From a virus, in IMG/VR virus record IMGVR_UViG_3300035696_000019, positions 32,001-96,000 of that record: a stretch of 64,000 bases of DNA. One strand, given 5' to 3'. Under the pieces are notes generated by a model. It saw only the letters and a program-made list of their open reading frames with translations. It was not told the DNA's origin and did not search any database. Made by a program: the position numbers and the translations under genes. Shown here piece by piece: positions 1,540-53,922 of the stretch (positions are counted from its first letter, which is position 1; the number at the start of each line of letters is the position of its first letter).

Positions 1540-1899
1540 TCAGTCGTTGAACTCCAGAACCACGTCGGAGAGATCGGTTATTTCCATCTCCACGGGAGTC
1601 GATTTCACCAATCGTTTCAGAACATGCTCGGTCGCCGGAGTAATTCCCGCGGTCATGATCGAGCGACCGGTCACGGTTATTTCCACAATGCGTCGCGCGG
1701 TATGGTTACGCGAGGTCAGGTCGCCAAACTTCACCAGCCCGCGCTCCACCAGAAACCCCAGAGAGCAGCGCAATGCCTGGCGTGACGGCTTATAGGGCAG
1801 CGCCCCGCACAACTGCGGAATATCCATCGGGGTGCCATCCGGGTTGCCCTTGTGCAAGGTCTGCAAAATGGCGATCTGTTTGTAGCTTAGAGAGCGCAT
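1540..1899 (-). CDS. Winged-helix DNA-binding protein
   Basis: MarR-like pattern: LS.KQIAIL...SRQALRCSLGFLVERGLV...VEITVTGR. Confidence 0.6.
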   Translation of the reverse strand: MRSLSYKQIAILQTLHKGNPDGTPMDIPQLCGALPYKPSRQALRCSLGFLVERGLVKFGDLTSRNHTARRIVEITVTGRSIMTAGITPATEHVLKRLVKSTPVEMEITDLSDVVLEFND

Positions 1900-2789
1900 A
1901 GCTTCTCCAGATCAAGTGGCTGGTCGGTGGGTTGATTGTCGAACGCCAGCAAGGGCAGTCGTTCAGGCAACGCGCGTTCGAAATCCGGGTTCTTGTAAGC
2001 ACCATACAGCGGCGCGGCAAGCACCAATTGTTGCAAGCTCTTGATCAGTTCGCCCGGCGTCTTGGCGGCCACACGCTCGCGGCTGTTGAAGCGGTTATTG
2101 CCGGATTTTTCGCGCGCCGAATGGTCGTAATACCACTTGTGCAACTCTTTCAGACAACGCTCGCGCACGGCGGGAGAAAACGAATCCAGTTCCTCCAGCA
2201 GTTCCACATAGTCCGCCGGATTGCCGTCGAACCAGCGACGGAATACTTCAAGCCCATGCTCGTAATAGGTTGACCGCTCCGGCTCGCCAAACTTGACGCC
2301 TGCCTTCAAGGCGAACGGATTGATGCGCGACATCGAGGACTGGAATTCGAGGATCTTAAACCCGGACATACGCATGGCGAGATTTTGCAGACGATAGGCG
2401 ACACCCACGCTGCGAAACACCGGATCAACCACGATGCGCGAATTGACACGAATCAGGCGATTGATCAGGTGGGCGCGATAGCTGTTGACGAGCTTGTTGT
2501 CCATGCCGTTCCGGTTGGGACACAACCAGGGAAACATTTTGTTGCGCGCGCGACTGGTTAATCCCGGCACAGACATGATACTGACGCCGATCAGCTTTTC
2601 GCCCATCTTGCAGCGGAAGAACAGCGGCCCGACGCCGAGTTTGCCTTCCTTGTAGTGCAATTCGTGCAACTGGTTCCAGTCTTCTACTGTTCCACGCTCA
2701 ACAATCATCCGCTCCAGCAATGAAAAGCGGTATTGCTCGGGCGGGGAGACGCGCTCGACGCGCCATTCAGCATTGTCAGTGATGATCAC
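1887..2789 (-). CDS. GNAT-family (Mom-like) acyltransferase, candidate DNA-modifying enzyme
   Basis: Acyl-CoA motif SRIVVDPVFRSVGVA, plus HELHY and SSMSRINPF; adjacent to an ABC ATPase and ParB-like genes. Confidence 0.6.
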   Translation of the reverse strand: MIITDNAEWRVERVSPPEQYRFSLLERMIVERGTVEDWNQLHELHYKEGKLGVGPLFFRCKMGEKLIGVSIMSVPGLTSRARNKMFPWLCPNRNGMDNKLVNSYRAHLINRLIRVNSRIVVDPVFRSVGVAYRLQNLAMRMSGFKILEFQSSMSRINPFALKAGVKFGEPERSTYYEHGLEVFRRWFDGNPADYVELLEELDSFSPAVRERCLKELHKWYYDHSAREKSGNNRFNSRERVAAKTPGELIKSLQQLVLAAPLYGAYKNPDFERALPERLPLLAFDNQPTDQPLDLEKLCAL

Positions 2790-3181
2790 GACTTATCCTT
2801 TTTGGCGCGCAGGAATGGTGCAAAATGCGCGTAAAGCGTATCGAGCAGATAGCAGAATGTTTCACGGTTGCCTTCGCCCGTTTCTACGCCGGCTCGATCC
2901 AGCACATCGAAGGTGCAATGGGCCAGTTCGTGAATCAGCGTCGTGCGATTGTGACCAAAGACGCCAATCAACCCGACGGCGCCCTGCTCGTTCTCGAAGT
3001 AACTGGTGACACCCAGGTTGCCGGTCAAGTCCGGCGCTGGGCGCTCTACGCGGTTCAGTCGGCGGAGTTCGGCATGCGCGGCCAGAAAGGCTTTTCGACC
3101 GGTCGCCATATAAATGTGCCCACCAAAGATCGGCACATGCAGATGCGGGAGCGATTCAAATGGATGAGGTTTTTTAGCCAT
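2786..3181 (-). CDS. HExxH protein (metallopeptidase-like)
   Basis: TLIHELAH...E.FCY; overlaps neighbours in the operon. Confidence 0.55.
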   Translation of the reverse strand: MAKKPHPFESLPHLHVPIFGGHIYMATGRKAFLAAHAELRRLNRVERPAPDLTGNLGVTSYFENEQGAVGLIGVFGHNRTTLIHELAHCTFDVLDRAGVETGEGNRETFCYLLDTLYAHFAPFLRAKKDKS

Positions 3182-3187
3182 GATGGT

Positions 3188-3295
3188 TCACGCGAAGTCG
3201 TCAAAGTCATCGTCGGCACCCTGTCGGTAATACGCCGCGATAAGACAGATAAGTATCAATGCGGGCAATCCACCCACGGCGAAAAGTCCGATCAT
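3188..3295 (-). CDS. 35-aa membrane peptide
   Basis: Manual translation MIGLFAVGGLPALILICLIAAYYRQGADDDFDDFA; ATGA overlap, fills the operon gap. Confidence 0.4.
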   Translation of the reverse strand: MIGLFAVGGLPALILICLIAAYYRQGADDDFDDFA

Positions 3296-3594
3296 TTACC
3301 ACCTCTCATCAGTGCTAGCAGTTCATCCGGCGCGAGTAATCCCTCAACGCGCAATGTCGTTTGGCCCTTTTCGATGCGCAGCATCGCGGGCGTCCGGTTG
3401 ACGCGCCAGGCGTTTGTCCACGCCTGCCCGATTTCCATCTCGTCGATCAATACAACAGGAAGGTCGTGAAAGCGATCTGCCCAATGTTGCTGGCCGGCAT
3501 GCCAACTCTGATAAACCAACACAAACACCGGAGCTTGTTTGGAAGGCTCAATTACGTCGTGATGGAAATTGATGAGGTTGGTTTTCTGGCTCAT
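3292..3594 (-). CDS. Thioredoxin-fold protein lacking CXXC
   Basis: WRVNRTPAMLRIEKG...EGLL (cis-Pro region); start MSQK overlaps the upstream stop. Confidence 0.55.
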   Translation of the reverse strand: MSQKTNLINFHHDVIEPSKQAPVFVLVYQSWHAGQQHWADRFHDLPVVLIDEMEIGQAWTNAWRVNRTPAMLRIEKGQTTLRVEGLLAPDELLALMRGGK

Positions 3595-4241
3595 GTCGGC
3601 TCCTCGGCGCGCACCACGGACACCTTCTCGCGGTAGCGTTTGACGATGGTCAAGTTGGGACACAGGTCTTGCACCATGTCACTGTGCGTGGTTGCCACCA
3701 TGAGCGTGACGCCCAACTGTCGCGCCATCTTTTGCAGCGTGCCGGAAATGGCTTTGGCGCAATCGCGGTCGAGCACGGCGCAGAACTCATCCGCGACCCA
3801 CACCTGAGCGCCGGACTCGATCAGTTTCGCCAACTTGAGGCGGTAGAGCTGGCCGTCGGAAAGCTGATCCGGCGTGCGCAGGAACAGGTAGGCATCATTC
3901 ACGCCCGTGCGCGTCAGGAAGTCACTAGCCTCCTTCATGTTATTGCCCAACTGGTCGATCACCGGCAGGTTGTAATTGAGCTTGACGGTATCCAGGTTGG
4001 CGACCTGCAAGCCTTCTGCCTGCATCTGTTTCGCCAGTTCGCGCAGCGCAATGGATTTGCCGGAGCCGGACTCGCCTGTGATGTAGACCACATCGCCGGG
4101 ATTGACCTCGATCTGAGCCGCGTCATAAACCACGAACTCACGATCATCCAGCCCCAGGCCGAACATTTCTGCCACCTCCAGAGTGCGCGGCGTGCGCTTG
4201 ACGCGCGTGTGAAAGCGTTTGTCGAGGGTGTAGACGGTCAT
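3591..4241 (-). CDS. Stand-alone ABC-type ATPase
   Basis: Walker A GESGSGKS, signature LSDGQ, Walker B VADEF, H-loop TTH; no permease nearby. Confidence 0.85.
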   Translation of the reverse strand: MTVYTLDKRFHTRVKRTPRTLEVAEMFGLGLDDREFVVYDAAQIEVNPGDVVYITGESGSGKSIALRELAKQMQAEGLQVANLDTVKLNYNLPVIDQLGNNMKEASDFLTRTGVNDAYLFLRTPDQLSDGQLYRLKLAKLIESGAQVWVADEFCAVLDRDCAKAISGTLQKMARQLGVTLMVATTHSDMVQDLCPNLTIVKRYREKVSVVRAEEPT

Positions 4242-4714
4242 GACAGCAGCCCTCCCGTCCGTTTCTCGTTCCGCATCACATCGCGGATCAATGCGACAAT
4301 GTGTGGATCGATGGGCACATCAAGCGGATTGATGATATTGACGACGCTGGATTCGTCAGACTCACGCTTCGTCTCTTGCGGCACGGGGTGGTTAAGGCAT
4401 TCGAAGTGGTCGCGCAACACATGCTCAAAGGCTTCGCCCACCGAATCGAAATGCTTGCCGTCAACTTCACAGCCTTTTTGATGCATCATTGGGCCGCCGC
4501 CGATTTTGCAGGCGAATTCGCTCAGATCCGGCTTGGGCGTCCGTTGGATCAGATCATTGTTATGGCTCAATTCATGCAGCCAGTCGTCGGGCAGCGGCGT
4601 GCCGGCTTTGGCATAGCGCAGCATGGCGTGCAAGATTTCATACTGCCGTTCCAGCAGGAAGGTATGACGGGAGCGCAAGCCAAGGGGCGGTTTATTCAGA
4701 TTCATATATGTCAC
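4238..4714 (-). CDS. Hypothetical protein
   Basis: ORF in operon with ATGA overlap. Confidence 0.55.
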   Translation of the reverse strand: MTYMNLNKPPLGLRSRHTFLLERQYEILHAMLRYAKAGTPLPDDWLHELSHNNDLIQRTPKPDLSEFACKIGGGPMMHQKGCEVDGKHFDSVGEAFEHVLRDHFECLNHPVPQETKRESDESSVVNIINPLDVPIDPHIVALIRDVMRNEKRTGGLLS

Positions 4715-4728
4715 TCGTGACTTTTTTA

Positions 4729-5382
4729 TCAGGCCGCCAAAATGCCACTGATGAATTGGATGAAGGCTTCGGCGGGCGGAAGGCCGGAGTCGGATTCGAT
4801 TTGCGCCATGAAGCGTGTCAGCACGCGCTGGTGACGCGCGGCAATCTTCTTGAAGCCAAACACCTTGTCGATGGCGATTTCCTTTTCGTCGGTCGCTTCG
4901 ATGTCGGCGGCAGTGGCGTGCTCCTGCTCGGATACCGAACTCATGATGTCGAACGCCAGAGCGTCTTCGTTGATTTCGGTCAGATCGGCCTCCATGAAGG
5001 CCAGTTCCTTGTCGTCAAAGATGCCCTGCATGCTGAGTTCCAGCGAGGCCAGTTCCTCTTGCAGCATCAGAGTATCAATGGCGGATTCCGCTACGCGGTT
5101 ATCGGCCAGGCGCGCGGCCTTCACCTCCGCCGGCGTCAGGTTGTCGCGCACCCACACCGGCACCTCGGTCAGACCAAGAGAGATCGCCGCCAGACGGCGA
5201 CCATGCCCACCAATAATGACGCCATCCTTATCGACGGAGATGACGCTTGTCCAGCCAAACCGCTTGATCGACTCCGCGATCTTCTGCACCTGCGCCTTGT
5301 CGTGCTTTTTGACATTCTTTTCATAAGGGATCAGCCGATCAATCGGCCATTTTTGGATATTCAGTTCAATCTTGCTCATCAT
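4729..5382 (-). CDS. ParB/Srx-like protein
   Basis: LIPYEKN.KKH...IAESIKRFGW...IIGGHGRRLAA...RLADN. Confidence 0.85.
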   Translation of the reverse strand: MMSKIELNIQKWPIDRLIPYEKNVKKHDKAQVQKIAESIKRFGWTSVISVDKDGVIIGGHGRRLAAISLGLTEVPVWVRDNLTPAEVKAARLADNRVAESAIDTLMLQEELASLELSMQGIFDDKELAFMEADLTEINEDALAFDIMSSVSEQEHATAADIEATDEKEIAIDKVFGFKKIAARHQRVLTRFMAQIESDSGLPPAEAFIQFISGILAA

Positions 5383-5559
5383 AATCTCCGAGAAAATCGC
5401 GGAATTCAGCCAGCGTCATGCTGCGTTCGCTCTCATCGCCGGAAGGGATGAGCGTGAAATGAAAGGCGTTGTAGCACTGGGTGCAAAGACGCCGATCCAG
5501 TTCGGCGTTGATACAATCAACGCATTGCGGGAAGTAGCCGGGCTTGCTCATACCGTCTC

Positions 5560-5925
5560 TCACGCGATCTTGCAGGGGATGGTCGCATCTTCGTTGAGTA
5601 GATACACGGCGCAAACGCGGTGGTATCCGTCAGCGATGACAAGTCGATCATTATCGGTGCGAACCAGCAGGATGGGCGATAGCGGCTTGCCCTGCTCGAT
5701 CTTGCGCAGGTTCTTCCTGACGTGCGCGTTGGCTTCATCCAGTCGCGGCTCTTTTGAGGCGCGCAGAATGTCTTTCGCCTTGAACTCGGACATGTCTACA
5801 AGGCGCAGCAGGTTCGTCAGTGCCTCGGCTTTGGTGAGTGACATCAGCAACGACAGAAAATCTTGCGCTGCGGGATAGTCGTGGTCTTCCGGCTCGGGCA
5901 GCCAGGTGGGTTCGCGTTGTGACAT
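5560..5925 (-). CDS. Small ParB/Srx-like protein
   Basis: LSPILLV...LVIADGYHRVCA; start reassigned to MSQREP. Confidence 0.65.
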   Translation of the reverse strand: MSQREPTWLPEPEDHDYPAAQDFLSLLMSLTKAEALTNLLRLVDMSEFKAKDILRASKEPRLDEANAHVRKNLRKIEQGKPLSPILLVRTDNDRLVIADGYHRVCAVYLLNEDATIPCKIA

Positions 5926-5929
5926 CAGA

Positions 5930-6286
5930 TCACACTCCGACAGGTTGCGCGACCGCGCGGACAAGCGCCATGATGCCCGTCTGGATGTCGGTCTTGCCAA
6001 CTTCCGCCCATCGCAGCGGCTCGGCTGCGATGAAGCGTCGAAACTCCTGACATTCGTCGGTGGCGCCACTCCACTCGTCATAGGGATAGCCGTTCGGCTT
6101 TTTCTGACCCCACACCGACGTGCGCGCGGCGGACAGCTTCATTTCGTGGTCGGTGGAGAGACGACCGACCAGTTCAGCCTGCAAGTTCAGCAACTCTCTG
6201 CCGGCGGTCTTGATGCGGTTCATCAGGTCGATTTCTTCTCGACTCAGCTCGCGATAGCCATCAATTTTGCGATGTTGGTTTTCCAT
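5930..6286 (-). CDS. acb2: Acb2/Vs.4-like cyclic-nucleotide sponge (anti-CBASS)
   Basis: MENQHRKIDGYRELSREEIDLMNRIK...AEPLRWAEVGKTDIQTGIMALVRAVAQP matches both ends of Pseudomonas phage Acb2 as I recall it. Confidence 0.8.
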   Translation of the reverse strand: MENQHRKIDGYRELSREEIDLMNRIKTAGRELLNLQAELVGRLSTDHEMKLSAARTSVWGQKKPNGYPYDEWSGATDECQEFRRFIAAEPLRWAEVGKTDIQTGIMALVRAVAQPVGV

Positions 6287-6294
6287 TACGATGT

Positions 6295-6546
6295 TCACTC
6301 CGGCTTTGGCCGGCGTCCTTGTGTGTGCCAGTGGAATGCGTGCCAATCAACCTCGCCACCGCAGTGCTGACAACGGTAGTGACGCGGATGGCCGAGGTAA
6401 TTGGCCGACGACTCAACCGGCGCGAATTCGTGATACGCGCAGCCGTTGAGTCTTGCCTGATTGAGCTTGACCGACCCGGCCAGCGATAGCAGTTCATCGC
6501 GTGGCAGCCCCGTCAAGGCGGTGAGCGTGTCAAGGCTGTCGCTCAT
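6295..6546 (-). CDS. Small Zn-ribbon protein
   Basis: C.YH.F and CQHCGG; start MSDSL overlaps the upstream stop. Confidence 0.5.
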   Translation of the reverse strand: MSDSLDTLTALTGLPRDELLSLAGSVKLNQARLNGCAYHEFAPVESSANYLGHPRHYRCQHCGGEVDWHAFHWHTQGRRPKPE

Positions 6547-7196
6547 TTGAATTCCTTGAGGAGATGCACCAGTGCGTCGCCGGCGTTGGTCAGCGAGTCG
6601 TCCTCGGTGAAGCGTTGCGCCTTCATGGTTTGCGTAATCAGATCTTCCACCCAATCCGCATCCTCGACCGGCACCTTGAACTTCATCACGCGGTGCGTCT
6701 GCAATGTCTTTTCAGCAGCAGGGGGAGTGCTCGCGGCGAGTTCTTCGGCGGTCAGATCAAGATCGTCCAACGCTATGCTTGAGTTTGAGAACAGCGAAGT
6801 CAGGTCTTCTTCACTCATCGGCATGAACATCGCAAGTTCTTCGGGCGAACCCAGATCAAGCAGCAGATCGTTGAGTTTCAGCGGGTCATCTTCGCCATAG
6901 CGGTTGTTATCGACCAGGCTGATTTCCTTCGCGCGTCGGTCGCTGATCTTGCCGAGATTCACAATCGGCACTTCGGTCAGACCAATGCGCTTCGCGGAGA
7001 GCCAGCGATGTTCGCCGCCAATGATTTCGCGTTCGCCACTGGGTAACTCGCGCACCACGATCGGTTTGAACACGCCAAACTTGTGAATACTCTCGTCGAG
7101 TTTGGCTTCGTGATCCGGCGACATGACGTTCACGTTCCAGGGGTTTGGAGTCAATGAATCAATTGGCGCGGTTTGAAGGGAAAGCGTGTTTGGCAC
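6543..7196 (-). CDS. ParB/Srx-like protein
   Basis: LTPNPWN.N...PIVVR...IIGGEHRW; acidic linker and short C-terminal domain. Confidence 0.85.
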   Translation of the reverse strand: MPNTLSLQTAPIDSLTPNPWNVNVMSPDHEAKLDESIHKFGVFKPIVVRELPSGEREIIGGEHRWLSAKRIGLTEVPIVNLGKISDRRAKEISLVDNNRYGEDDPLKLNDLLLDLGSPEELAMFMPMSEEDLTSLFSNSSIALDDLDLTAEELAASTPPAAEKTLQTHRVMKFKVPVEDADWVEDLITQTMKAQRFTEDDSLTNAGDALVHLLKEFK

Positions 7197-9149: not shown

Positions 9150-9403
9150 CACGCAGTCAGTTCGACGACTGGATTCGTTCGGTCGATGCGAATGCGGTGT
9201 CAGCCTGGGCGAAGTCGTTACAAGGCGAGGACGCTACCTACCGTTCGTTCCTCGCCTTTGTTTCGACACGGCTGGAGTATCCCGCCGGGTCGCCCGACGC
9301 CGAGTCAGATGACGAGGCGGAATGGATGACCCGCTTGAAGAACTGGTGGGAGACGGGCCGACCTGATCTGGATGCGCCAGCGACGGAAGCTGACGCCTGG
9401 TAG
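9146..9403 (+). CDS. Hypothetical protein ending in DAW
   Basis: GTGA overlap; followed by a terminator. Confidence 0.55.
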   Translation: MTRSQFDDWIRSVDANAVSAWAKSLQGEDATYRSFLAFVSTRLEYPAGSPDAESDDEAEWMTRLKNWWETGRPDLDAPATEADAW

Positions 9404-9493
9404 TTCGAGGAGTAGTTGAGCAAATAAGCGATTACTCGTATTCTTTTCTCAATTCATCAGCCGGGCGAGTGACGGCCTGACAGGTCAGACGAC

Positions 9494-9526
9494 AAACGGG
9501 AGCCTTCGGGTTCCCGTTTTTGTTTT
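9494..9526 (+). terminator. Rho-independent terminator
   Basis: AAACGGGAGCC-TTCG-GGTTCCCGTTT followed by a T tract. Confidence 0.85.
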
Positions 9527-9753
9527 GAGGCTTGGAGCCTTGGGCTTCAGGGCTGAAAGGGTGATGTTTTGAGGATTTGGCTCCGGGGTGAAAGGGTGAT
9601 GTCTGGAAGGTCGAAGACAGTGGAGGGTGGGCCTCCTCTACATAAAAATTTTTCTAAGACATGAGCTATTCAGCACGCACGCGCTACGGATACAAAAAAT
9701 CGACCACACATATATGCGCGGTCGATTAGTTTATATTCGCTCGCGATTATTAT

Positions 9754-10284
9754 TTATTCTATCGTGTAGATATATTCTATCGTCGGATATATCGACGTTT
9801 TATCATCGATGCATTGCATGATATCGTTCATGCATTGTGTAGTTATTATTCCGTCCTTATTCAGATTCTCTAAAGCGTCAAAAGCATAAGAGATATTCCG
9901 CTGTTTTTGATTGATCAAAGCAGTCATTTTTCGCGCTGTCGATTCTACGATCGACTGATACACAAGCGCGTAAAAGATAACCAGCGTCCTTTCACACACA
10001 GTCGCGTCATACGCGCGTTTCTTGCTCGCGAGCATATCAAGGTATTCCGATGCATACGCGCGCGCACCAGTCAGTGTTTCTGTAGTCGCTACGCGGTCGG
10101 AGATGTAACCGCTCGACTTTACTTTGACGTAGTAGCGTGACTCCTGCTCACTCCAAAAGATCCACGCTATATCATGCGCACTGGATACATGCGCGACGAT
10201 AGAATCAGACTTTGCGGTAAAGAAAATTTTGCGCGCTGCATTAGCAATCATTGCGAGACGTTGCGCTTTAGTCATGGTGCTCAT
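9754..10284 (-). CDS. Hypothetical protein in the GGS-free zone
   Basis: 176-aa ORF with AAAGGA RBS; very few Gly/Pro. Confidence 0.6.
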   Translation of the reverse strand: MSTMTKAQRLAMIANAARKIFFTAKSDSIVAHVSSAHDIAWIFWSEQESRYYVKVKSSGYISDRVATTETLTGARAYASEYLDMLASKKRAYDATVCERTLVIFYALVYQSIVESTARKMTALINQKQRNISYAFDALENLNKDGIITTQCMNDIMQCIDDKTSIYPTIEYIYTIE

Positions 10285-10308
10285 TTTAATATCCTTTCAG
10301 AATTAAAA

Positions 10309-10342
10309 ATTAGTGACTGAATAATATTATTCAGTCACTAAT
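10309..10342. repeat. 34-bp perfect palindrome
   Basis: ATTAGTGACTGAATAAT|ATTATTCAGTCACTAAT; overlaps an operator variant at 10332. Confidence 0.9.
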
Positions 10343-10348
10343 GAGTTA

Positions 10349-11131
10349 TTATTTAGATTGGAATAGTCGCGCTACTTCACGCGCGATGTCGGAGTCCAGC
10401 AAAGTGATACTGTCTTTTGCTGCACCTTTTTTGATGCTCGCAACACCGATAAAGGACAGCATCATGCGCGTGCTACTGCACTGAGTCGATGCTGTCGACT
10501 CGCTGCAGTTGTGCAGTCGCTTTATATCCAGCGTCTGATCCATCGCATCGTATGTGATGCTGCTGCAAATCGTCATGCGCGCGCTTTTATTATCGACATA
10601 GTTCAAACGAATCAGATTCGATATGATAGAGCGCGAATAACCATCAAAACCGGATTTAATACCACTCGCGATAGCAAAAATCGCTTTGCGGATTTTTTGC
10701 ACTGCGTAAATTGCAACAAAATCCGCGCTGGACTTGTCTGTGATGCTGATTTTTTGCGCAAGCGCAAGCAGGTCGACATCCAGATCAAGCATCTTCTTAA
10801 TCGCGAGCTTTGCAGCGCTTTTTTCAAAAGCTTTACGCTCTGTAATAAAGCTGTGCGTCTGATTCGCGCACGGTGCGTGATCCGCGCGAGCTTGAAGCGA
10901 CTCTATAAGAGCGGAATAAATCATGTCGATTTTGTTTTCGTTCTTTTTTGCTGCGAGTGTCGCAGCGCGCTTTGCTGCGATTTCCGCTTTTTGCGTATCG
11001 GTCAAAGCTACTTTTTTAGCAGTAGTCTTTTTGACGCTTTTCTTTTCAGCAGTAGCGGAAACAACCGCATCGATAACGGTATCAACTGCTGTATCCACTG
11101 CTGTATCCACTGCTACGGTTTGCTTTTCCAT
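10349..11131 (-). CDS. Hypothetical protein with Lys/Ala-rich N-terminus and probable C-terminal winged helix
   Basis: Start MEKQ has a GGAGA RBS; AVDT repeats; C-terminus SESTASTQ...LSFIGV. Confidence 0.7.
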   Translation of the reverse strand: MEKQTVAVDTAVDTAVDTVIDAVVSATAEKKSVKKTTAKKVALTDTQKAEIAAKRAATLAAKKNENKIDMIYSALIESLQARADHAPCANQTHSFITERKAFEKSAAKLAIKKMLDLDVDLLALAQKISITDKSSADFVAIYAVQKIRKAIFAIASGIKSGFDGYSRSIISNLIRLNYVDNKSARMTICSSITYDAMDQTLDIKRLHNCSESTASTQCSSTRMMLSFIGVASIKKGAAKDSITLLDSDIAREVARLFQSK

Positions 11132-11529
11132 GATGCATATCTCCAGATAACGCGCAAAGGTGCGCACATCGATGCAGCGCGTTAGTGCGCTGTCGATGTA
11201 GTCACTATACACGCTTACTTTTCATCTACAAAAAATATGTAGCTGAAAACTTGACCTAGATCAATTTACAGAATGAGTTACAAATAACGCGCGGATTAAC
11301 AACAAACGAACTGGATACCTGAGCGAATTACTCGGAATCGCAGAGCAAAGTTGATTTATGTCAAACAAACGAACGGTGTCGGAGTGAAAACGCGGTCTAG
11401 CTACTTGACAACCGCTAAAAGCAGCTCAAAAACGCTGTTTTTCTTGATATAAGTCAACAAAATCGACCGGTTTGACCAATTTTTAAGCAGCCCTGGACGG
11501 TTGCGAGACGCAATGAAGCGGTTCCGACA

Positions 11530-11820
11530 CTTTCCCTAGGGTTTCCGACGGTTTTCGGTATTTCTCCTACCCCTAGGGCACCTTCCCTAGCCCTTACCAG
11601 TCCTCGGGTGGCACCTAACCAGTCCTCGGGCGGCCCCTAGGCAACCACCCCAAGGCACAAAGGGAATCCCCAAGGCTCCAGGCATCAAGCCCGAGGTGTC
11701 ACCAGGCGTCGGGCGGCTCCTCACCAGGCAGGCAATGGCAACGCCTAGGCGTCAGGCAATAAAAAACCCTAGGTGTATCCTCGGGCGTGAGAAAGTGAAA
11801 GTCCCGAGAGTTGCCCGAGG
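11530..11820. repeat. Non-coding spacer dense in CCTAGG / CTCGGG / CCCGAG motifs
   Basis: Many copies, including ACCAGTCCTCGGGYGGC at 11596 and 11618; similar spacers at ~12260-12420, ~13215-13430 and ~14520-14730. Confidence 0.7.
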
Positions 11821-11860
11821 AGATAAATCCATAAACCGCACGGTGGCGGTTTCTGCTGCT

Positions 11861-12157
11861 TTAGAATTCATCCAAAGCATTTGCAATTAGCGTTTTGAAC
11901 ATAACGCGCGCTTGTCTGTAGTCGCGATTATTGAAAACGAACGCGGTGCGGAATGCGTCCTTTTCCATCAGCGCGCTATTTGCGTGAGAGATATTAGAAC
12001 AACCTTTTGCGTCAAAAATTGCAACAATGTGCGTGTATTCGTCCACGGTAGAAAAATCAAAGTGCTGACCAGCGATAACCGCGAACCGGTTACCCATGAT
12101 GGATTTAGCGGATTCCATCATCGCGGAATATTGCTCAAACGTCGTTATAACTCGCAT
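11861..12157 (-). CDS. Hypothetical small protein (own promoter and terminator)
   Basis: Promoter at 12193-12221; hairpin AAACCGC..GCGGTTT at 11832-11852. Confidence 0.65.
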   Translation of the reverse strand: MRVITTFEQYSAMMESAKSIMGNRFAVIAGQHFDFSTVDEYTHIVAIFDAKGCSNISHANSALMEKDAFRTAFVFNNRDYRQARVMFKTLIANALDEF

Positions 12158-12192
12158 GGTGCAGACCTTTCGTGTTTGGTTTCGATGAAATA

Positions 12193-12221
12193 ATTATCGC
12201 AACCGGATATTGGCACTTCAA
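12193..12221 (-). promoter_or_regulatory. Sigma70-type promoter, prototype of a repeated family
   Basis: TTGAAG-17bp-GATAAT with extended TG; related copies at 12530-12558 and 13130-13158. Confidence 0.75.
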
Positions 12222-12424
12222 GAGAGTTAAACACGATTGGTTTGGGCGTTTTAAACCGTAGGTGTGGCCTAGCGATCCATAAGCACCGCCTAGGTGTTGT
12301 GGCCTAGGCATGGTCAGGCAGAGGATTGGCCTAGCGATCAATAGGCAGTGCCGAGGAATTGAGTGAGATTAATACCTAGGTGTTGTGGCCTGGAGATGGA
12401 TGGGCAGTGCCTAGGAGGATGCGA

Positions 12425-12524
12425 AGTAAACCGCACATAGGCGGTTTATCTGGCTACTCCAGATCACGCTCAGCAAGTCGTGCGCCCTCCAAATCATCCA
12501 CACCAAACACGGTGCGCGGTTCGC
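12425..12524 (-). ncRNA. Candidate ~100-nt small RNA
   Basis: Promoter TTGTAA-17-GATAAT (12530-12558) and hairpin TAAACCGC..GCGGTTTA (12427-12448), with no RBS-led ORF between them. Confidence 0.35.
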
Positions 12525-12653
12525 ACATAATTATCACAACCGGATATTGACGTTACAAGCAATCAGCGTTGGGAGATTTGAACGAATTTTCGCTCGCCCG
12601 AGGAGAACCCGAGGAAGAATTAAAACAACCACTCATAGGAGTGGTCTGGTTGA

Positions 12654-13088
12654 TTACCATGGGAGAATGCAGTTTTCACCGTCGTCATCATCGAACTGGA
12701 TTTCATCCAGATCAGCGAAATAAACCGCGCGACCAAATTTTTCATGCATATGCAAGCGGTCATCATCAAAGCACAATTGCTCTACCGAGAGAATGATTGC
12801 ATCGTGTTGAATGTATTCCGCGCTGTAGTGCTTGCTTAAACACTCATTCAATTCCGCGTAGTCGGAACCCAACGCGAATTGTTCTTCAATCAGTTCTCCA
12901 GTCACGATGTTAATCGTGCGGTAAAACATGACATCGTTGAAGTAATCCGTTTCACCGTCGTCATTAGTCATGCTGACCACGCTGACCACGTATGACGCGC
13001 TGCGATTTCCAGCGTTGACGTAGCAACACTCAAACAGCGGTATAGATTTAAACTGACTGCTTGCACGGTCGATAGCGTTTTGTTCCAT
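12654..13088 (-). CDS. Hypothetical acidic protein
   Basis: Start MEQN with AAAGG RBS; promoter at 13130-13158. Confidence 0.65.
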   Translation of the reverse strand: MEQNAIDRASSQFKSIPLFECCYVNAGNRSASYVVSVVSMTNDDGETDYFNDVMFYRTINIVTGELIEEQFALGSDYAELNECLSKHYSAEYIQHDAIILSVEQLCFDDDRLHMHEKFGRAVYFADLDEIQFDDDDGENCILPW

Positions 13089-13529
13089 GATGTTACCTTT
13101 CATTCGGTAGCGAGTTATCAGACGCATTTAGTATCCATGACCGGTATTGGCACTTCAAGCGATCTACTTGGGAGCTTTCTACTCAGGGAGCACCCATCGT
13201 CCGGTAGGATACCGTTTCCTCGGGCGCTGACGCCCCTAGGAGACGCCCAAACACTCTAGAGCTACCCAACCCTTCCCCTGCTAGCGAAAACGCCTAGGAA
13301 GCGCTCTGTGTGCCCGAGAACATTTCACCTATCCCTACGTCGCCTAGGTGTCGGTAGGCAACGCCAACACCCAACCAGGGATGCGCCGCACTCAACCAGA
13401 CCTCGGGCGGCTCCTATCCAGGCTTCGGGCGGCAGAGAAAACGCCTTGGGGTCAGAGTGTGTTGAAACGCCCGACGGTGCGCTGCGTCGGGTGAGGTGAG
13501 TGACCGCGCGATGACGCGGTCAAGATCGA

Positions 13530-13811
13530 TCAGTATTCGATTTCCAGCGTATCGGACATTTCCTCACCGTAACCAAAATAATTGTCCGTTTGATCGCGCA
13601 CCGTCGCGAGCAGCGCACTTGCTGCGTAAAGATCAACGGTGGTCATGGTGACTTTGATGTTGCGCTCGTTTTCACCATCGGTCTGAAAATCCAGGCGGAT
13701 GTCCGCGACCACACCGTCGTTATCGCGGATCAGTTGGGCACAAACATAGTTGTCGTAGTCCGGGTTAAATTCCGTGATCTTCACGGTTCCTTTGCGGGGG
13801 ATATGTGTCAT
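13530..13811 (-). CDS. Hypothetical acidic small protein
   Basis: GGAG RBS; family promoter at ~13846. Confidence 0.6.
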   Translation of the reverse strand: MTHIPRKGTVKITEFNPDYDNYVCAQLIRDNDGVVADIRLDFQTDGENERNIKVTMTTVDLYAASALLATVRDQTDNYFGYGEEMSDTLEIEY

Positions 13812-14164
13812 GGTGGTTTACTCCGTGGTGGGTTTCGATACTCACAGTATCGCGCAGCGGAATAGGCTTAGAAAGCGAAAAACAGGCTGTTTGCGCAATT
13901 TTTCACTCATGCGCCCGCGAGGTGATGGGTTGAATATTGCTCGCAAAGTGCATTTATTGGCATTTTCCACCGCGCTCAACTGTGACACTCGGCAGGGTGT
14001 CACATAGAGGAGAAATGCACCCCTCGGGTGTCAATCGTGGTCTGAGATGGGTCAGGCAGCGCCTCGGGCTGGCCTGGAGTGGAATAGGTAGTGAGTGCGC
14101 TATGGCGTGGCCTAGGTGCAGAGAGGCAGCAGAACAACCGGACTGATGACCGGTCGGGTGTTGG

Positions 14165-14359
14165 TTACGGCATACAGGGATCAACCCTGGCATCGGAAAC
14201 CCAACCGAGTTGCATGGCGTGTTGCTCGGACTTTGGCAGTGCGTCGAACTGGGCGCGCGTCATGTCATTGCATTCGATGATGGCTTCGATCAGGTCGTCG
14301 TCGCCCAGACGACGGTTGAACTCGGCGTCGATCACATCTCCGTCACGGTAGGTTTCCAT
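14165..14359 (-). CDS. Hypothetical acidic small protein
   Basis: GGAG RBS; family promoter at ~14392. Confidence 0.55.
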   Translation of the reverse strand: METYRDGDVIDAEFNRRLGDDDLIEAIIECNDMTRAQFDALPKSEQHAMQLGWVSDARVDPCMP

Positions 14360-15280
14360 GATTTTATGCTCCGGTCGGTTGGTATGAGCACAGCATGACC
14401 ACGCAGTATTGGCATGAAAACACGTTTTAGAGGGATTTCGCGCAATCTTTCATTGTCGTTTTCGAGGGTGTAGGGGCATAAAATGCTAAAACGGCGGATT
14501 TTGAGCGGCAAGGGTGTCCCATGCCGAGGGGTTCGGCTGATGGCAGGGTTTCCCGATTCCGTGGTATCTCTGTGGCCGAGGGCTTTCGACTCCCGCCAGT
14601 AGACGGTAGGCACCAGGTGAGCGCCGCAGGCGCGAGCCGGTGCCGTTCTACTCCCGAGGATATCACCAGGCCGAGGGCTTTCCCTCTCCGCTACCTAGGA
14701 TCAGTCCTACCACTCCCTAGGGGTCAATCCCTCTGCCAACCATGCGCCTTCGGCGCCAACTGGCACTGGGAACACCCTTTCCAGTCTATAGTTGGCAGGG
14801 AATTTTTATACCGTGGATGAATTTTTCCCTCGCGCGCGCGCATTTAGAAAAAACCGACGAAGCGAGAGGAGGAGCCGGATGACGACGAGCGAAGCGAGGA
14901 GGAAGAAGGCTCCGTAGCGAAGCGAAGGAGGTTTTTTCCAGAGAGGAAGTAAATCAAGAGAGTCGAAACTCAGAAACAAGCCCCCCTCCCCCAAACGCTC
15001 TATGAAACTGAGCACCAGTAACGACTTGCTTGTCACTAGCGGGAGAGGGAAACCGTTTCAAGGCGTTGAGCTTAGTCGTGTCGATGGCGAAACAACAGAG
15101 CGAACCCAGAAACAAGCCCCCAGAAGAAAGAGTAAAGCGAGAGAACAAATCGCTCAACATCCCGAGACGGATAGTAAGTCACGGGTGATTTATCTGTCAA
15201 GTGGAGTAGGTGAGACCAATGCAGGTCGGTGAGAGGGGTAGATGGCGACAATGAGTGGAATACCGCCGCCCGCCAGTCAC

Positions 15281-50102: not shown

Positions 50103-51353
50103 CTATTCCAGAATTTCGGCAACCTTCTGGAAGGTTGCCAGTAGCAGTTCCGCTTTTTCGGGCGTGAACACCAGTTGCACCGGGTTCAGACCGCACACGA
50201 TCGAGGCATCCAGCTTCGGGTCGTAAATAGCCTGTCCCACCAGTTCGGACGGCGGCGACTTCTGGCCCGGCAGCAGGCGCTTGATGGTTGCGCTGCCCAA
50301 TGCCACGATGACCGAGGGTTTGATCAATTCGATTTCACGCTCGATATACTTGGCGCAGCCATTGATCTGCTCATTCGACAGAAATTTGCCGTCTTTCTTG
50401 GCTTTGACCAACGTGGTGTAGTAGCCCTCCGCCACATTCAGCCCCGCATCTTTCATGGCGGCTTTGACGAAATCGGCAGCGTCGCCCACCAGCAGCTTGT
50501 CCTCCCTCTCCTCCTGCCAGGTTGGGCAATCGGCAATGACCATGAATTTGACCTTGCTCTTGCAGCGCACCGTCGGGTGTCCCGCGCCGGCCAGCGAGCA
50601 ATCCTCGCACTTGGTCTTGTAGTCTTGCGCCAATTCGATAATTTGAGTGCGTAGGAATTTTTCACTCAGGTCAGTCACGCGATCCGCCTTCACCGAGTCG
50701 ATGATGAGGCCCGGCAATAGCTCCATCTGGTCTTTGCGGCGCGAATCATGACGCGCAGGCTTGGCGCCAGGGTCAATGTTCGCCAGTGCGCCGACCAGCT
50801 TGAGACTTTCCACCACTCGCACGTTGACCTTGGAGCCAGGCTCGGCGGCTGCGTATTCGAATTCCTGCACGGTATCGAAACGCCCCTTGACCGGACAGTC
50901 TTCATCCATGCCGTATACCGCTTCGCCATTGCGCTTGGTCTTGACCACCTTCCAGTCACGGTTATTGACGCGCAGTTCCATGATGCGTCGCGCGGTCGTG
51001 TCGGACACCCCTTTGACCGCATTGAACGGCGCGAGAATATGCTGGTCATCGGGGATCACATAAGTGTCGGCGGAGCGATTGATGTCCGGCGGCAGTAGCT
51101 CAATACCGGCCTCGCGCGCATCCTTGACCAGTCCCGGCAGCTTGTCTTCCGCCACAATGGACATGCAGGCGGCGAAGTATTCCGCCGGGTAGCGCACCCG
51201 CAGCCACATGGTGAAGTAGCTGATGATCGAGTAGGCGGTGGCGTGGGATTTGTTGAAGCCATACTGCGCAAATGTCTCCAATTTATCAAACAGTCGCTCT
51301 GCATCGGCTTGAGCCATGCCGTTGTCCACTATTTTGCAGGCGGTAATTTTCAT
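50103..51353 (-). CDS. dnaE: DNA polymerase III alpha, C-terminal half, fused to a family-4 UDG-like domain
   Basis: Start MKIT has a GGAGA RBS; FAQYGFNKSHATAY, YPAEYFAA, PPDINRS, HhH VKGVS; then CEDC...EIELIKPSVIVALG. Confidence 0.9.
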   Translation of the reverse strand: MKITACKIVDNGMAQADAERLFDKLETFAQYGFNKSHATAYSIISYFTMWLRVRYPAEYFAACMSIVAEDKLPGLVKDAREAGIELLPPDINRSADTYVIPDDQHILAPFNAVKGVSDTTARRIMELRVNNRDWKVVKTKRNGEAVYGMDEDCPVKGRFDTVQEFEYAAAEPGSKVNVRVVESLKLVGALANIDPGAKPARHDSRRKDQMELLPGLIIDSVKADRVTDLSEKFLRTQIIELAQDYKTKCEDCSLAGAGHPTVRCKSKVKFMVIADCPTWQEEREDKLLVGDAADFVKAAMKDAGLNVAEGYYTTLVKAKKDGKFLSNEQINGCAKYIEREIELIKPSVIVALGSATIKRLLPGQKSPPSELVGQAIYDPKLDASIVCGLNPVQLVFTPEKAELLLATFQKVAEILE

Positions 51354-51517
51354 TTTATCTCCATCAAAAAATGATGCACTTGTTCGGAGTCGAAAAGAGG
51401 GCGCCCGAGCACATCGCTCTCTTTCGTCAAGCCAGAGTTCCACGCTGACCGCCCTTTCTTTGCCATTTCTCCGCGCCTGAGACTATGTTTCTGTAGCCAG
51501 TTTTTATCCATGATTTT
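51350..51517 (-). pseudogene. Decayed homing-endonuclease remnant between the dnaE halves
   Basis: One frame reads KSWIKNWLQKHSLRRGEMAKKGRSAWNSGLTKESDV...EQVHH...IK*. It contains a WNKGLTKETD-type motif, and its stop overlaps the dnaE-C ATG. Confidence 0.55.
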
Positions 51518-51555: not shown

Positions 51556-53922
51556 TTACAAGCCACTCAATAGCGTGTAACCTTTTGCCATAATCTCCTC
51601 TACGGTAAACTTTTCGTCGCTTTCGCTGACTGCAAATTTTGCCGCGCGATGAACTCGTTTTACAGTGCCATTCTCAAGAGTGACCTCAATTTCCCCTTTC
51701 GTTGCGCCATAAACGAATTTCTCTCGCATGGACGCCATAAGCGTCGCGTCTTTCTTGCCCATCGCCTTGCGTAGCTTGTCGGCTTCCGCCAGTGTGTAGC
51801 CCGCCACGTCTTGCGACACGCGCATAACCTGCTCTTGATAGATCATCACCCCGTAGGTGGTTTCCAGTGCACCGATCATGTTCGGATGGTCGTAATGTGG
51901 CGCGCGATGGCCTTGCCTGATGCGCACGAATTCATCCAGCATGCCGGAATCCATCGGGCCGGGGCGGTAGAGCGCGGTCGCGGCAGTGATGTCTTCGAAC
52001 GTCAGGCGGCCACCTTGCGCAATGTCGCGCAGCAGCTTCTTCATGCCTGAACTTTCAAACTGGAATACGCCGGTCGTCTCGCCGCGCCCGAAGGCATCCA
52101 TGATGTCGGGGTCTTCCAGCGGCAGCGTCAGGTAATCCACCTCAATGCCATGCCGCTCTTTGATCATGCGCTTGGCGATGTCGAGCACGTCGAGCGTGGA
52201 CAGGCCCAGAATGTCCATCTTGACGAGGCCCATGTCCTCGACCACGCGTTTGTCCCAATTCGTTACCGGCGATTCACCGCGCGTTTCAACCACGGCGCGC
52301 TCGGTCAATGGTTCGCCTGCCACCACCACACCCGCAGCATGTGTGCCGAATGAGCGCATCACGCCTTCCAGCTTGGTTGCATGGCTCCAGATGGTCGGGA
52401 ACTCGCTCTTGAAGCGTTCCAACTCAGGCACGGCTTTGGCTGCCTCTGTCAGCGAGAACGACGTGCCGCCCTCTTTGGGCACCAGCTTGGTGGCGGTCAT
52501 GTCGAGACCCGACAACCCGAATACACGCCCGGTATCGCGTAGCGCCGATGCGGAGGCCAGTGTGGCGTAGTTGGAGATACCGGCGACGCGATCTGCACCA
52601 TAGGTGTCGCGCAGGTATTCAATAACCTTGTGGCGCACTGAACTGGCGAAGTCCAGATCGGCGTCGGGCAAATCCTGACGCTCGGGGTTGATGAAGCGCT
52701 CAAAGATCAGATGAAAGCGAATAGGGTCAACTTCGGTCATGCCGATCAGGTAAGCAACCAGTGAGCCGCCGACCGAACCCCGACCGGGGCCAACGATTAC
52801 GCCGTTGGCTTTGGCCCAGTTCACCAGATCCTCGACCAGCAGGAAGTAGTTACAGAATCCCAGGCGGTTCAGCGTGCGCAGTTCGTATTCCACGCGCTCG
52901 ACATAGGGCTTGAGATCGGTGGGCTGATAGCCCAACACCGGACGCAGCAGGCGCTTCTTGAAGCCCTCTCTGACTTTGGCGCACAACAGCGCAAAGTCGT
53001 TGTCCGACATGACTGGCAGACACACCGGTTGATTCTTGAAGGCGTAGTAGTTGCGCTTGGCGAAGGCTTCGATGTTGTTCAGACCCGCCATCCACAACTT
53101 CGGAAAAGGTGTCGGGTCGATGCCGTCTTGCTTGCAGCGCGTCAACATGCGTGTCGCTGCCGCCTTCACCTTTGTCACCAGTGACTTATCGTCCTGAAAG
53201 GCAAAATCCGTGACGAATTGCACTGGACGCCACCGGCTATCCATCTTCTCCTGTGAGGCAATCACACTCAGCACGTCGAGCGTGGGCGCGTCTTCCGCCT
53301 GGCGATAGAAGACGGGATAGGTCACGAGCGTCGACAGACTCAGCGCATCGGCTGTCAGCGCCGCCTTGAGATTCAACGTGTCGAACAGCGGCGTATTGAT
53401 CGGCGTCAGTTCCACGTAAGTCGGAAACCGTTTGGCGAGTTCACCCACAATGCGACGGTGATCCTCGACGTGGAACACGTTGAACAGGTCGCCAGTCGTG
53501 ACGACCACATCCTCCAGAGCCAGCACATCCTCCAGCCCGACACGGCTCACGTAATAGAAATAGTCGGGCGCATTGCCTTTGGAGAGCAGCTTGATCAGGC
53601 TTTTCATCCCCGCTTCCGACGTGGGGTAAACCTTGATCTGATACATCGGATTGGGGGCTTCCTTCTCACCGCTCGCCTTGGAGGGTTTGCGGTAAGTCGG
53701 ATCACGCACCACACGCACCGTGCAGCCAATAATCGGCTTGAGGCCCGCTTTGCCCATCTTGTTGGAAAAATCAATCATGCCATGAATCGACATGATGTCG
53801 GCCAGCGCGACCGACTCCAGCCCCATTGCTTTGGCCGTTTCGACGATGTGATCGATTTGCAGCATCGATTGCCCGATGCTGAAATCGGAACGCACCGCGA
53901 GAGCATGTGCCAGGTTCATCAT
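51556..53922 (-). CDS. dnaE: DNA polymerase III alpha, N-terminal half, with an intein-like 48-aa tail
   Basis: PHP domain (metal ligands degenerate), GPGRGSVGGS, FERFINPER, PDADLDF, KMDILGL, YQEQVM, LRKAMGKK. Confidence 0.95.
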   Translation of the reverse strand: MMNLAHALAVRSDFSIGQSMLQIDHIVETAKAMGLESVALADIMSIHGMIDFSNKMGKAGLKPIIGCTVRVVRDPTYRKPSKASGEKEAPNPMYQIKVYPTSEAGMKSLIKLLSKGNAPDYFYYVSRVGLEDVLALEDVVVTTGDLFNVFHVEDHRRIVGELAKRFPTYVELTPINTPLFDTLNLKAALTADALSLSTLVTYPVFYRQAEDAPTLDVLSVIASQEKMDSRWRPVQFVTDFAFQDDKSLVTKVKAAATRMLTRCKQDGIDPTPFPKLWMAGLNNIEAFAKRNYYAFKNQPVCLPVMSDNDFALLCAKVREGFKKRLLRPVLGYQPTDLKPYVERVEYELRTLNRLGFCNYFLLVEDLVNWAKANGVIVGPGRGSVGGSLVAYLIGMTEVDPIRFHLIFERFINPERQDLPDADLDFASSVRHKVIEYLRDTYGADRVAGISNYATLASASALRDTGRVFGLSGLDMTATKLVPKEGGTSFSLTEAAKAVPELERFKSEFPTIWSHATKLEGVMRSFGTHAAGVVVAGEPLTERAVVETRGESPVTNWDKRVVEDMGLVKMDILGLSTLDVLDIAKRMIKERHGIEVDYLTLPLEDPDIMDAFGRGETTGVFQFESSGMKKLLRDIAQGGRLTFEDITAATALYRPGPMDSGMLDEFVRIRQGHRAPHYDHPNMIGALETTYGVMIYQEQVMRVSQDVAGYTLAEADKLRKAMGKKDATLMASMREKFVYGATKGEIEVTLENGTVKRVHRAAKFAVSESDEKFTVEEIMAKGYTLLSGL

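Follow-up and report, generated by a model that had tools for sequence, protein, structure and literature searches.

Selection against very short words in DNA or RNA is known from several settings. In restriction-site avoidance and in avoidance of CRISPR protospacer-adjacent motifs (PAMs), an agent that reads DNA counter-selects a short word on both strands, and the depletion is statistical, extends over the whole genome and concerns sites of 4-8 bp. The first-step-transfer DNA of phages T5 and BF23 is a short block of first-needed genes, adjoined by repeat-rich DNA, that is free of sites for a restriction enzyme able to cut elsewhere in the genome; T5 first-step DNA has no EcoRI site. At the RNA level, RNA viruses are depleted of CpG against ZAP and mRNAs without ACA are resistant to MazF, such that genes purged of a 2-3-nt word evade the effector that reads it. 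Here we describe a zone of 1856 bp in a phage genome (IMG/VR record IMGVR_UViG_3300035696_000019) in which the avoidance is instead local to one expression cassette, absolute and directed at words of 2-3 bp built on the GG/CC step. We analyzed a window of 64 kb, bases 32001-96000 of this 105,923-bp genome, which is rated 98% complete.

We scanned both strands of the window for GGG, GGC, GCC and CCC (GGS/SCC, where S is G or C). These words occur 4375 times in the window and not once, in any of the four forms, across 9634-11489. The sites that flank the zone start at 9631 and 11490, leaving a gap of 1859 bp. The second-largest gap is 281 bp, and the zone is equally unique in the complete genome, where the largest other gap is also 281 bp. 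At the genome mean of 71.4 sites per kb, ~132 sites would be expected in the zone, while its own base composition (43.7% G+C, compared to 56.5% for the genome) predicts ~78 (~39 CCC/GGG and ~39 GCC/GGC). The computed counts bear out an earlier note made from the sequence alone, which had reported from a manual scan that GG followed by G or C was absent from both strands, had put the expectation at roughly 80 for ~45% G+C, and had listed GGA/GGT, GCGC and CCGG as present. Every GG in the zone is followed, and every CC preceded, by A or T, GGA and GGT both occur, and the palindromes GCGC, CGCG and CCGG are found 33, 34 and 2 times, respectively.

The avoided unit is the GG/CC step, of which the 3-nt word GGS is the extreme end. 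The observed/expected ratio of GG/CC is 0.37 in the zone, with a minimum of 0.22 in 300-bp windows, compared to a genome median of 0.78, and the depletion is confined to the zone, with the remainder of the genome at normal density. On the coding strand of the zone, GG (36 occurrences) and CC (30) are similarly rare, meaning that the ban is strand-symmetric. CG and GC are enriched (observed/expected 1.7 and 1.8), as are CGC/GCG (3.6) and the palindromes GCGC, CGCG and TCGA. Across the zones of this window and its relatives, CG and GC are enriched 1.2-2.0-fold, and this enrichment holds G+C at 33-52%. The earlier note had read the pattern as strong DNA-level selection against a 3-nt motif. Selection is upheld by the strand symmetry, the inclusion of non-coding DNA, the conservation and the maintenance described below, while the unit has to be widened from three nucleotides to the GG/CC step.

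The zone is a minus-strand unit, flanked on one side by the end of the helicase operon and on the other by minus-strand single-gene cassettes arranged in an array. Its parts are as follows.

9634-11489, no strand: zone free of GGS/SCC and poor in GG/CC, 1856 bp, G+C 43.7%, forming one minus-strand expression cassette
10349-11131, minus strand: resident gene, 260 aa, with a predicted winged helix; ATG at 11131, GGAG at 11144-11141 before the start
9754-10284, minus strand: second gene, a 176-aa orphan with 3 Gly and 1 Pro, in a variable "cargo" position
10309-10342, no strand: perfect 17+17 palindrome between the two genes (inverted repeat, 100% complementary), a terminator-like hairpin without GG or CC
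9698-9727, minus strand: terminator-like hairpin with a T run at the cassette end; the ban runs ~65 bp past the hairpin
11132-11489, minus strand: GG/CC-poor upstream region, ~360 bp before the start codon, holding the putative promoter and the leader palindrome
11231-11226 and 11209-11204, minus strand: putative sigma-70 promoter, TTGTAG and TATAGT with a 16-nt spacer, read by eye
~11197-11166, minus strand: imperfect leader palindrome within the upstream region

A consensus promoter scan did not pick up the TTGTAG/TATAGT promoter of the cassette; sigma-70-like promoters at 12221-12193 and 12558-12530 serve neighboring cassettes. Some 260 bp of banned upstream DNA lies beyond the putative promoter, and in the zones of this genome and its relatives the ban extends 140-290 bp upstream of the promoters as read and ~50-100 bp past the terminators. 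No known RNA families were found in 9300-12700. The 176-aa orphan has only itself as a database match and no Pfam or PHROG match, and relatives hold unrelated open reading frames (ORFs) in its place. Long antisense ORFs (219-240 aa) run over the resident gene, at 10511-11185 (plus strand) in the window and, on the minus strand of related loci (numbered L005, L007 and so on), at 9704-10381 in L016, 9743-10402 in L017 and 7053-7775 in L009; such frames could stem from the unusual composition, or could belong to a genuine overlapping gene.

We used two codon controls. When the proteins were held fixed and synonymous codons were drawn from the usage of 41 long ORFs of the genome, the two zone genes contained 21.4 ± 4.0 and 41.3 ± 5.2 sites (minima 10 and 26), or ~63 jointly, where none is seen. 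When each gene's own synonymous codons were permuted in 1000 trials, the means were 6.7 and 13.4 sites and zero was reached in 0 of the 1000 trials for each gene. Since permutations of a gene's own codons never reach zero, the words that span codon junctions have been purged as well. The 542 bp of non-coding DNA in the zone is likewise purged. Composition and chance are ruled out by these resampling and permutation results, and the depletion thus survives the codon-shuffled comparison that the earlier note had proposed: base and amino-acid composition do not account for the zero. The proteins themselves are bent, as had also been noted for a ban spanning two genes and the DNA between them. They contain 3 and 5 Gly, where 13.8 and 20.3 are expected, and one Pro each, where 6.8 and 10.1 are expected, and neither gene has a single GCC or GGC codon.

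The ban is conserved. Relatives of the locus, at 26-50% protein identity, comprised 22 IMG/VR loci, one contig of a Paraburkholderia metagenome-assembled genome and Acinetobacter phage-plasmids, from which we surveyed 21 non-redundant loci of 5 to 20 kb each. In 19 of the 21, the longest interval without GGS falls on, or partly on, the homologue of the resident gene, and in nine of the 21 the homologous gene is devoid of sites although 39-78 would be expected. The gaps extend to as much as 2247 and 1933 bp, in which case they take in a second, unrelated gene. The observed/expected ratio of GG/CC is 0.0-0.5 in the zones of relatives compared to ~0.8 in their flanks. The earlier note had held that a lack of conservation at homologous loci would speak against its reading; instead, the pattern recurs. 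The hosts span alpha-, beta- and gammaproteobacteria, and the ban is independent of the host. The stretch itself occurs as contigs, identical in sequence, in three peat-metagenome DNA runs, and the public runs listed for it include no RNA run. No similar DNA was found in the phage collection, and a tblastn search with the resident protein gave no hits in phages and only 26%-identical hits in Acinetobacter phage-plasmids.

The ban is also independent of the protein family. The two exceptions among the surveyed loci each carry two copies of the gene, one rich and one poor in sites (42 versus 1 in L005, 93 versus 0 in L022); The gene is also duplicated in L007, a locus that follows the rule, where the copies have 66 and 12 sites. 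In the tree, the GG-rich copies of L005 and L007 group together in a supported clade, which is itself nested within copies poor in GG. Paralogues that lie outside the cassette are rich in GG. As paralogues within one genome differ and the GG-rich clade is nested, the ban belongs to the genomic slot or cassette, not to the protein family. In one clade, the palindrome GTTTCACGTGAAAC, a candidate GG-free terminator or operator, directly follows each zone gene (L009 8143, L011 10722, L014 4700, L016 10584 and 11405, L017 10674 and 11354); in this window it is absent even at 3 mismatches.

Cultured phages show the same phenomenon. The nearest cultured relatives of the genome are phages of Stenotrophomonas, Xanthomonas, Rhizobium and Pseudomonas (nickie), together with the SSU5 phage-plasmids. 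Whole-genome scans revealed one stretch of 1150 bp without GG or CC in Rhizobium phage RHph_N1_15 (59.8% G+C), where the next-largest gap is 79 bp save for one of 154 bp that directly adjoins the stretch, and one of 1137 bp in Pseudomonas phage nickie (57.4% G+C), where the next gap is 145 bp. A 75%-identical relative of nickie has a 1490-bp GG/CC-free stretch. In nickie itself, three copies of CCCCTTACACAACC lie at L050 4600-4720 (nickie 105100-105220), starting ~55 bp or less from the end of its stretch. This genome, nickie and RHph_N1_15 each have a single zone. The zone genes EVB78_014 (RHph_N1_15, 190 aa) and gp019 (nickie, 184 aa) encode proteins that lack Gly, Pro and Trp altogether, and both genes have ribosome-binding sites of the GAGAGA type, without GG. 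In the gp019 family, 62 of 74 cluster representatives lack all three amino acids. In SSU5 and Cyrano the depletion amounts to no more than a weak dip at the corresponding gene, and ANB28 and JGB6 lack both a large zone and any detectable homologue.

Profile comparison did not demonstrate homology between the resident proteins of different lineages. Scores in hhalign were weak: E 0.076 for A2 against A4, in register at the C-terminal part only, E 0.098 for EVB78_014 and E 0.32 for SSU5_120. The structure model of nickie gp019 was poor (predicted local distance difference test, pLDDT, 57) and unfit for fold comparison. That the same kind of gene sits in every zone is suggested only by size, position and the weak in-register alignment.

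The contexts in which GG is tolerated differ among lineages. In ten zones pooled for trinucleotides, observed/expected is 0 for GGS, 0.11 for AGG/CCT, 0.19 for GGA/TCC and 0.20 for TGG/CCA, with milder values of 0.63 for CGG/CCG and 0.68 for GGT/ACC. At the four-base level, for which eleven zones were pooled, CGGT/ACCG alone is not depleted and is enriched 1.8-fold. Nearly all remaining GG in the L009-L017/L026 clade lies in CGGT/ACCG, in all three frames. Elsewhere the tolerated contexts are GGW (W being A or T) in this window, TGGT also in L020 and L010, and none in nickie and RHph_N1_15. The dependence on flanking bases is thus strong and lineage-specific.

The GG/CC ban is under active, continuing selection. 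Nickie and its 75%-identical relative differ at 130 of 549 coding positions; when these substitutions were placed randomly, they created 26 ± 4 GG/CC (minimum 13-14), where none is seen. Between L016 and L017, which differ at 213 positions, ~60 ± 6 forbidden words would be expected, and two are seen in each. Mutational decay is excluded by these substitution simulations together with the k-mer spectrum.

The zone is bordered by DNA that is dense in the very words it lacks.

9520-9633, plus strand: GG-dense left border, G-rich on this strand, with two copies of TGAAAGGGTGATGT
11490-11860, no strand: GG/CC-dense right border and spacer, with CCTAGG/CCTCGGG/CCAAGG words and 22-bp periodic repeats
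~11490-11860, 12160-12650, 13130-13530, 14000-14150 and 14500-14700: CCTAGG-rich spacers between minus-strand early cassettes
11861-12157 and 12654-13127, minus strand: two early-type single-gene cassettes, with partial depletion that is confined to their coding parts

The copies of TGAAAGGGTGATGT (9547-9607) are separated by 35 bp and belong to the G-rich patch that adjoins the zone on the left. Density of GG/CC reaches 190 per kb over the 200 bp on this side of the zone and 260 per kb in the first 200 bp to its right; elsewhere in the first 22 kb of the window it is 127 per kb. The sharp start after a G-rich patch and the rightward fading that had been read from the sequence were both recovered: 9434-9633 holds 24 GGS/SCC words, genes 11861-12157 and 12654-13088 have no GGC/GCC and 1-2 GGG/CCC each, with GG-rich spacers between them, and gene 13530-13811 has a few sites (2 GGC, 5 GGG). 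CCTAGG is concentrated in the spacers at 10-16 kb (11490-14700), which hold 15 of its 18 copies in the window along with many CCTCGG and CCAAGG. In most relatives, arrays of CCTAGG (≤18 per locus) are found on the upstream side of the homologous gene, and on its downstream side they are almost absent; more generally, GG/CC-dense repeat arrays adjoin the zone in most loci, with a repeat motif that varies by lineage. The neighboring cassettes share a related family of minus-strand promoters, at 12190-12222, 12527-12559, 13127-13159 and about 11 more places up to 28188, each before one small gene. Their form is TTGAAG/TTGTAA, a 17-nt spacer and GATAAT, with a conserved spacer element GCCAATA..CCGG, and these 14 related early promoters, unlike the zone, hold CC/GG.

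To characterize the resident protein, we built an AlphaFold2 (AF2) model on an alignment of 24 relatives. The model (pLDDT 88, predicted template-modeling score 0.78) has long N-terminal helices and a C-terminal winged helix, with helices at 164-176, 181-186 and 211-227 followed by strands at 231-234 and 241-244. Residues ~150-260 match winged helices of the MarR/ArsR/PadR type with Z 7-8.5 and a root-mean-square deviation of 2-3 Å over ~80 residues; these Z scores are middling on the scale of the tool, though the matches are uniform and cover the domain. Foldseek found the same kind of chain below significance, and the N-terminal helical part was unmatched. Sequence searches gave no Pfam match (E ≤ 0.01) for the resident protein and none common to the 24 aligned members, no sequence match in the PDB, only unnamed clusters in the Protein Atlas, and only phrog_4202 and phrog_9272, both of unknown function, among PHROGs. 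Thus the protein resembles MarR/ArsR/PadR regulators in the predicted fold of its C-terminal ~110 residues and in having leader palindromes, and differs from them in lacking a sequence match to any Pfam family or solved structure.

A nearly invariant motif of the homologues, TASTQASSTRMML, sits on the helix that the model predicts to enter the DNA groove, and the protein is probably a transcription regulator. Relatives have perfect leader palindromes, CTGCA..TGCAG or GTGCATGACGTCATGCAC, between the promoter and the start codon, and to judge from this placement they are probably the protein's own operators. Because these palindromes contain no GG, the resident protein is probably not itself the reader of GG, which makes unlikely a scheme in which a GG-binding protein exempts its own cassette.

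The remainder of the genome is that of a large tailed phage that encodes DnaE, CobS/CobT-like proteins, RecA, SbcCD, an integrase, a UvsW-type helicase, several ParB-like proteins and ABC-type ATPases, and is probably temperate. DNA polymerase III alpha appears to be split into a 788-aa PHP/NTPase/finger part (51556-53922, minus strand) and a 446-aa piece (50103-51443, minus strand) with an HHH_6 motif and a domain of the uracil-DNA-glycosylase superfamily. A 138-aa ORF (5930-6346, minus strand), which overlaps a 154-aa plus-strand ORF, has an Acb2/Tad1 hairpin domain (PF24729, E 1.5e-15), and by this match its product is likely a sponge for cyclic-nucleotide defense signals. Between terminase and helicase lies a minus-strand module (1887-7196) with ParB-like proteins at 4729-5382 and 6543-7196, an ABC-type ATPase at 3591-4241 and a 300-aa phrog_886 "ABC ATPase", the Cyrano version of which is annotated as fused to an acetyltransferase (GNAT) domain. 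This ParB-like/ABC-ATPase module is present in all relatives examined.

What kind of agent could impose such a ban? Since the ban is strand-symmetric and covers DNA 140-290 bp upstream of the promoters, the agent would read the GG/CC step on duplex DNA. An absolute purge, at the cost of amino acids and ribosome-binding sites, indicates that even a single site matters to it. As its specificity drifts with the phage lineage while the hosts belong to three proteobacterial classes, a phage-linked reader is favored over a universal host factor or DNA physics. Lastly, a single exempt cassette per genome, with a putatively autoregulated DNA-binding regulator and an ordinary sigma-70-type promoter, points to a general block or mark despite which this cassette must run. 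The reading we prefer, tentatively and at clearly less than even weight, is that a GG/CC-directed reader, probably phage-encoded, blocks or marks other DNA, with the regulator cassette exempted. Such a reader would bind or modify DNA and be a function of the phage, possibly delivered with the infecting genome or made soon after its entry; it would act at GG/CC-type words throughout the GC-rich DNA of host and phage and hamper transcription there. The cassette would be the sole promoter-to-terminator unit without a target, so host RNA polymerase could always express the regulator, even from a single genome copy, and the cassette could serve as an ignition or immunity switch. The logic recalls phage T4, in which Alc blocks transcription of cytosine-containing DNA and T4 DNA with hydroxymethylcytosine (hmC) is exempt: in both cases, a phage function would block transcription on DNA that carries a common chemical feature, and exempt DNA is expressed. 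T4, however, exempts its whole genome by base replacement, whereas here the exemption would be by sequence and limited to one cassette. No Alc-like protein was identified.

Several observations weigh against this reading. Exclusion of a phage-encoded binding or modifying protein, as the earlier note had suggested, is the best fit of the three candidates it offered, but no such protein was found. The TGT/DpdA, C5 and N6/N4 methyltransferase families (PF01702, PF00145 and PF01555) are absent from the genome, although other enzyme classes are not excluded by this result, and among six whole genomes no gene is present solely where the zone is present. The ParB-like/ABC-ATPase module near the terminase is a candidate for the reader by position only, and it also occurs in ANB28 and JGB6, which have no large zone. 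Flanks dense in GG are not universal among the loci. All other phage genes, early ones included, hold GG/CC at normal density and yet must be expressed, which means that the model needs an extra step, such as a lifting of the block by the regulator or by some function that acts later. The DNA modifications described in phages (T4 hmC, Mu Mom) are not known to stop host RNA polymerase. Finally, CYRAN_113 of Cyrano, which occupies the corresponding position though its homology was not demonstrated, is not among the genes expressed during lysogeny (PMC9928086, Table 1).

Two alternatives place the cause in host defense. The cassette could be the first or only DNA in the cell, as in T5, and have to survive a GG/CC-recognizing host nuclease or defense system until its products act, with the repeat arrays as an injection stop; first-entering DNA was also among the causes that the earlier note had listed. 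No other scheme has the merit that purging a local block suffices by itself, and anti-defense genes lie nearby, namely the Acb2/Tad1-like ORF at 5930-6346 and, in the same array of Acinetobacter phage-plasmids, ArdA; the repeat arrays flanking the zone would also fit. However, the contig shows no end repeats and the zone is located 41.6 kb into it, the spacing between zone and helicase varies (0.8 kb here, ~4.4 kb in RHph_N1_15, ~9-10 kb round the map in nickie), and the context rules track the phage lineage. The same internal position and lineage-dependent distance leave a virion end or packaging zone near 9630, another of the earlier note's candidates, unsupported. The T5 block, moreover, is a physical genome end freed of a 6-bp host restriction site, whereas here a 2-3-bp step is avoided at a variable map position and across hosts of three proteobacterial classes. 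We know of no host nuclease with a 2-3-bp GG word common to Pseudomonas, Rhizobium, Burkholderiales and Acinetobacter, and consider entry-related protection unlikely. The ArdA anti-restriction gene itself (L023 750-1292, Acinetobacter baumannii plasmid NZ_CP115646.1) and the homologue of the resident gene share one co-oriented array, a neighborhood that supports an anti-defense or early character of the array. If instead GG/CC were avoided as the PAM of type I-F CRISPR-Cas (CC) and of many Cas9 enzymes (NGG), the cassette would be untargetable and never sampled as a spacer. The avoided unit is exactly the strand-symmetric GG/CC, and Acinetobacter and many Pseudomonas carry type I-F systems, but Rhizobium and Burkholderiales hosts are not typical carriers. 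A cut anywhere else kills the phage, and a purge confined to one cassette therefore protects nothing; the flanking-base rules (GGS here, all but CGGT elsewhere) are also unlike PAM rules, making this explanation highly improbable. PAM depletion would be independent of flanks and genome-wide, where here it depends on flanks and concerns one cassette, and restriction-site avoidance would deplete a 4-8-bp word throughout the genome, where here GG/CC with one flanking base is avoided and the genome is otherwise undepleted. Also unlike restriction-site avoidance, palindromes (GCGC, CGCG, TCGA) are enriched and Gly, Pro and Trp are lost from proteins.

The remaining alternatives need no defense. The cassette could be a replication origin with its initiator, or a site that must melt, avoid A-form or G-rich structures, or exclude primase or initiator sites. 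The pairing of a winged-helix protein with adjacent short-repeat arrays, spaced at 22 bp, is reminiscent of an initiator and its iterons. In nickie, cumulative GC skew reaches its minimum 600 bp from the zone, and a local minimum occurs near the zone here; in RHph_N1_15, by contrast, the minimum is far from the zone, leaving skew ambiguous as an origin marker across genomes. With G+C kept at 33-52% and CG/GC enriched, selection is not for ease of melting. The ban takes in complete coding regions as well as the variable second gene, and DNA physics could hardly account for tolerated words that differ by lineage (CGGT versus TGGT versus none). We regard an origin or structural cause as quite unlikely. 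Selection on RNA would require that both strands are transcribed and that the transcripts lack GG, because of a GG-specific ribonuclease, an RNA-binding repressor or internal Shine-Dalgarno-like words. In keeping with this, the ban roughly coincides with the transcription unit, ribosome-binding sites lack GG in the strict lineages, and neighboring cassettes are depleted in their coding parts and not in their spacers. But GG and CC are equally absent from the coding strand, so the entire unit would have to be transcribed in antisense, and the ban reaches 140-290 bp upstream of the promoters as read. ZAP and MazF, correspondingly, act on RNA and one strand, whereas this ban is strand-symmetric and includes DNA that is probably not transcribed; an RNA-level cause is very unlikely. 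Finally, there might be no selection at all, the zone being a foreign island of odd composition or a product of local mutational bias such as deamination at CC. Its low G+C relative to the genome and its orphan second gene would suit an island, but the recurrence of the ban, at the homologous gene in 19 of the 21 loci and also in cultured phages, and its maintenance through 130 and 213 substitutions, rule out a foreign island or compositional artifact. Mutational bias is contradicted by substitutions that avoid creating the word, by intact ORFs, by the lack of enrichment of C-to-T decay products (observed/expected 0.24 for CCT/AGG and 0.68 for GAG/CTC) and by the 3.6-fold, compensation-like enrichment of CGC/GCG. 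The no-selection account is thus left with next to no probability. About a fifth of the probability remains with causes we have not thought of.

No described restriction, CRISPR, modification or silencing system fits the ban. The total, conserved exclusion of a two-base step from an entire gene cassette takes precedence over the choice of codons, over that of amino acids (Gly, Pro and Trp are lost) and even over the Shine-Dalgarno sequence; to our knowledge, it is among the strongest constraints on sequence apart from those of coding and RNA structure. It implies that a molecular agent of very short specificity is of great importance to these phages. We judge it only a little short of an even chance that phages of the SSU5/nickie/RHEph10 supergroup possess or face a new kind of reader of the single base-pair step GG/CC, tuned by one flanking base and acting genome-wide (for example by coating, modification or transcription block), to which one autoregulated regulator cassette per genome has been made invisible at the cost of proteins free of Gly, Pro and Trp. 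The phenomenon is present in harmless cultured phages of plant-associated bacteria (nickie and RHph_N1_15) and is thus directly testable. Identifying the reader could uncover a new level at which phages control their genes or take over the host, or else a new defense, and would explain how a 100-kb phage starts or safeguards its program.

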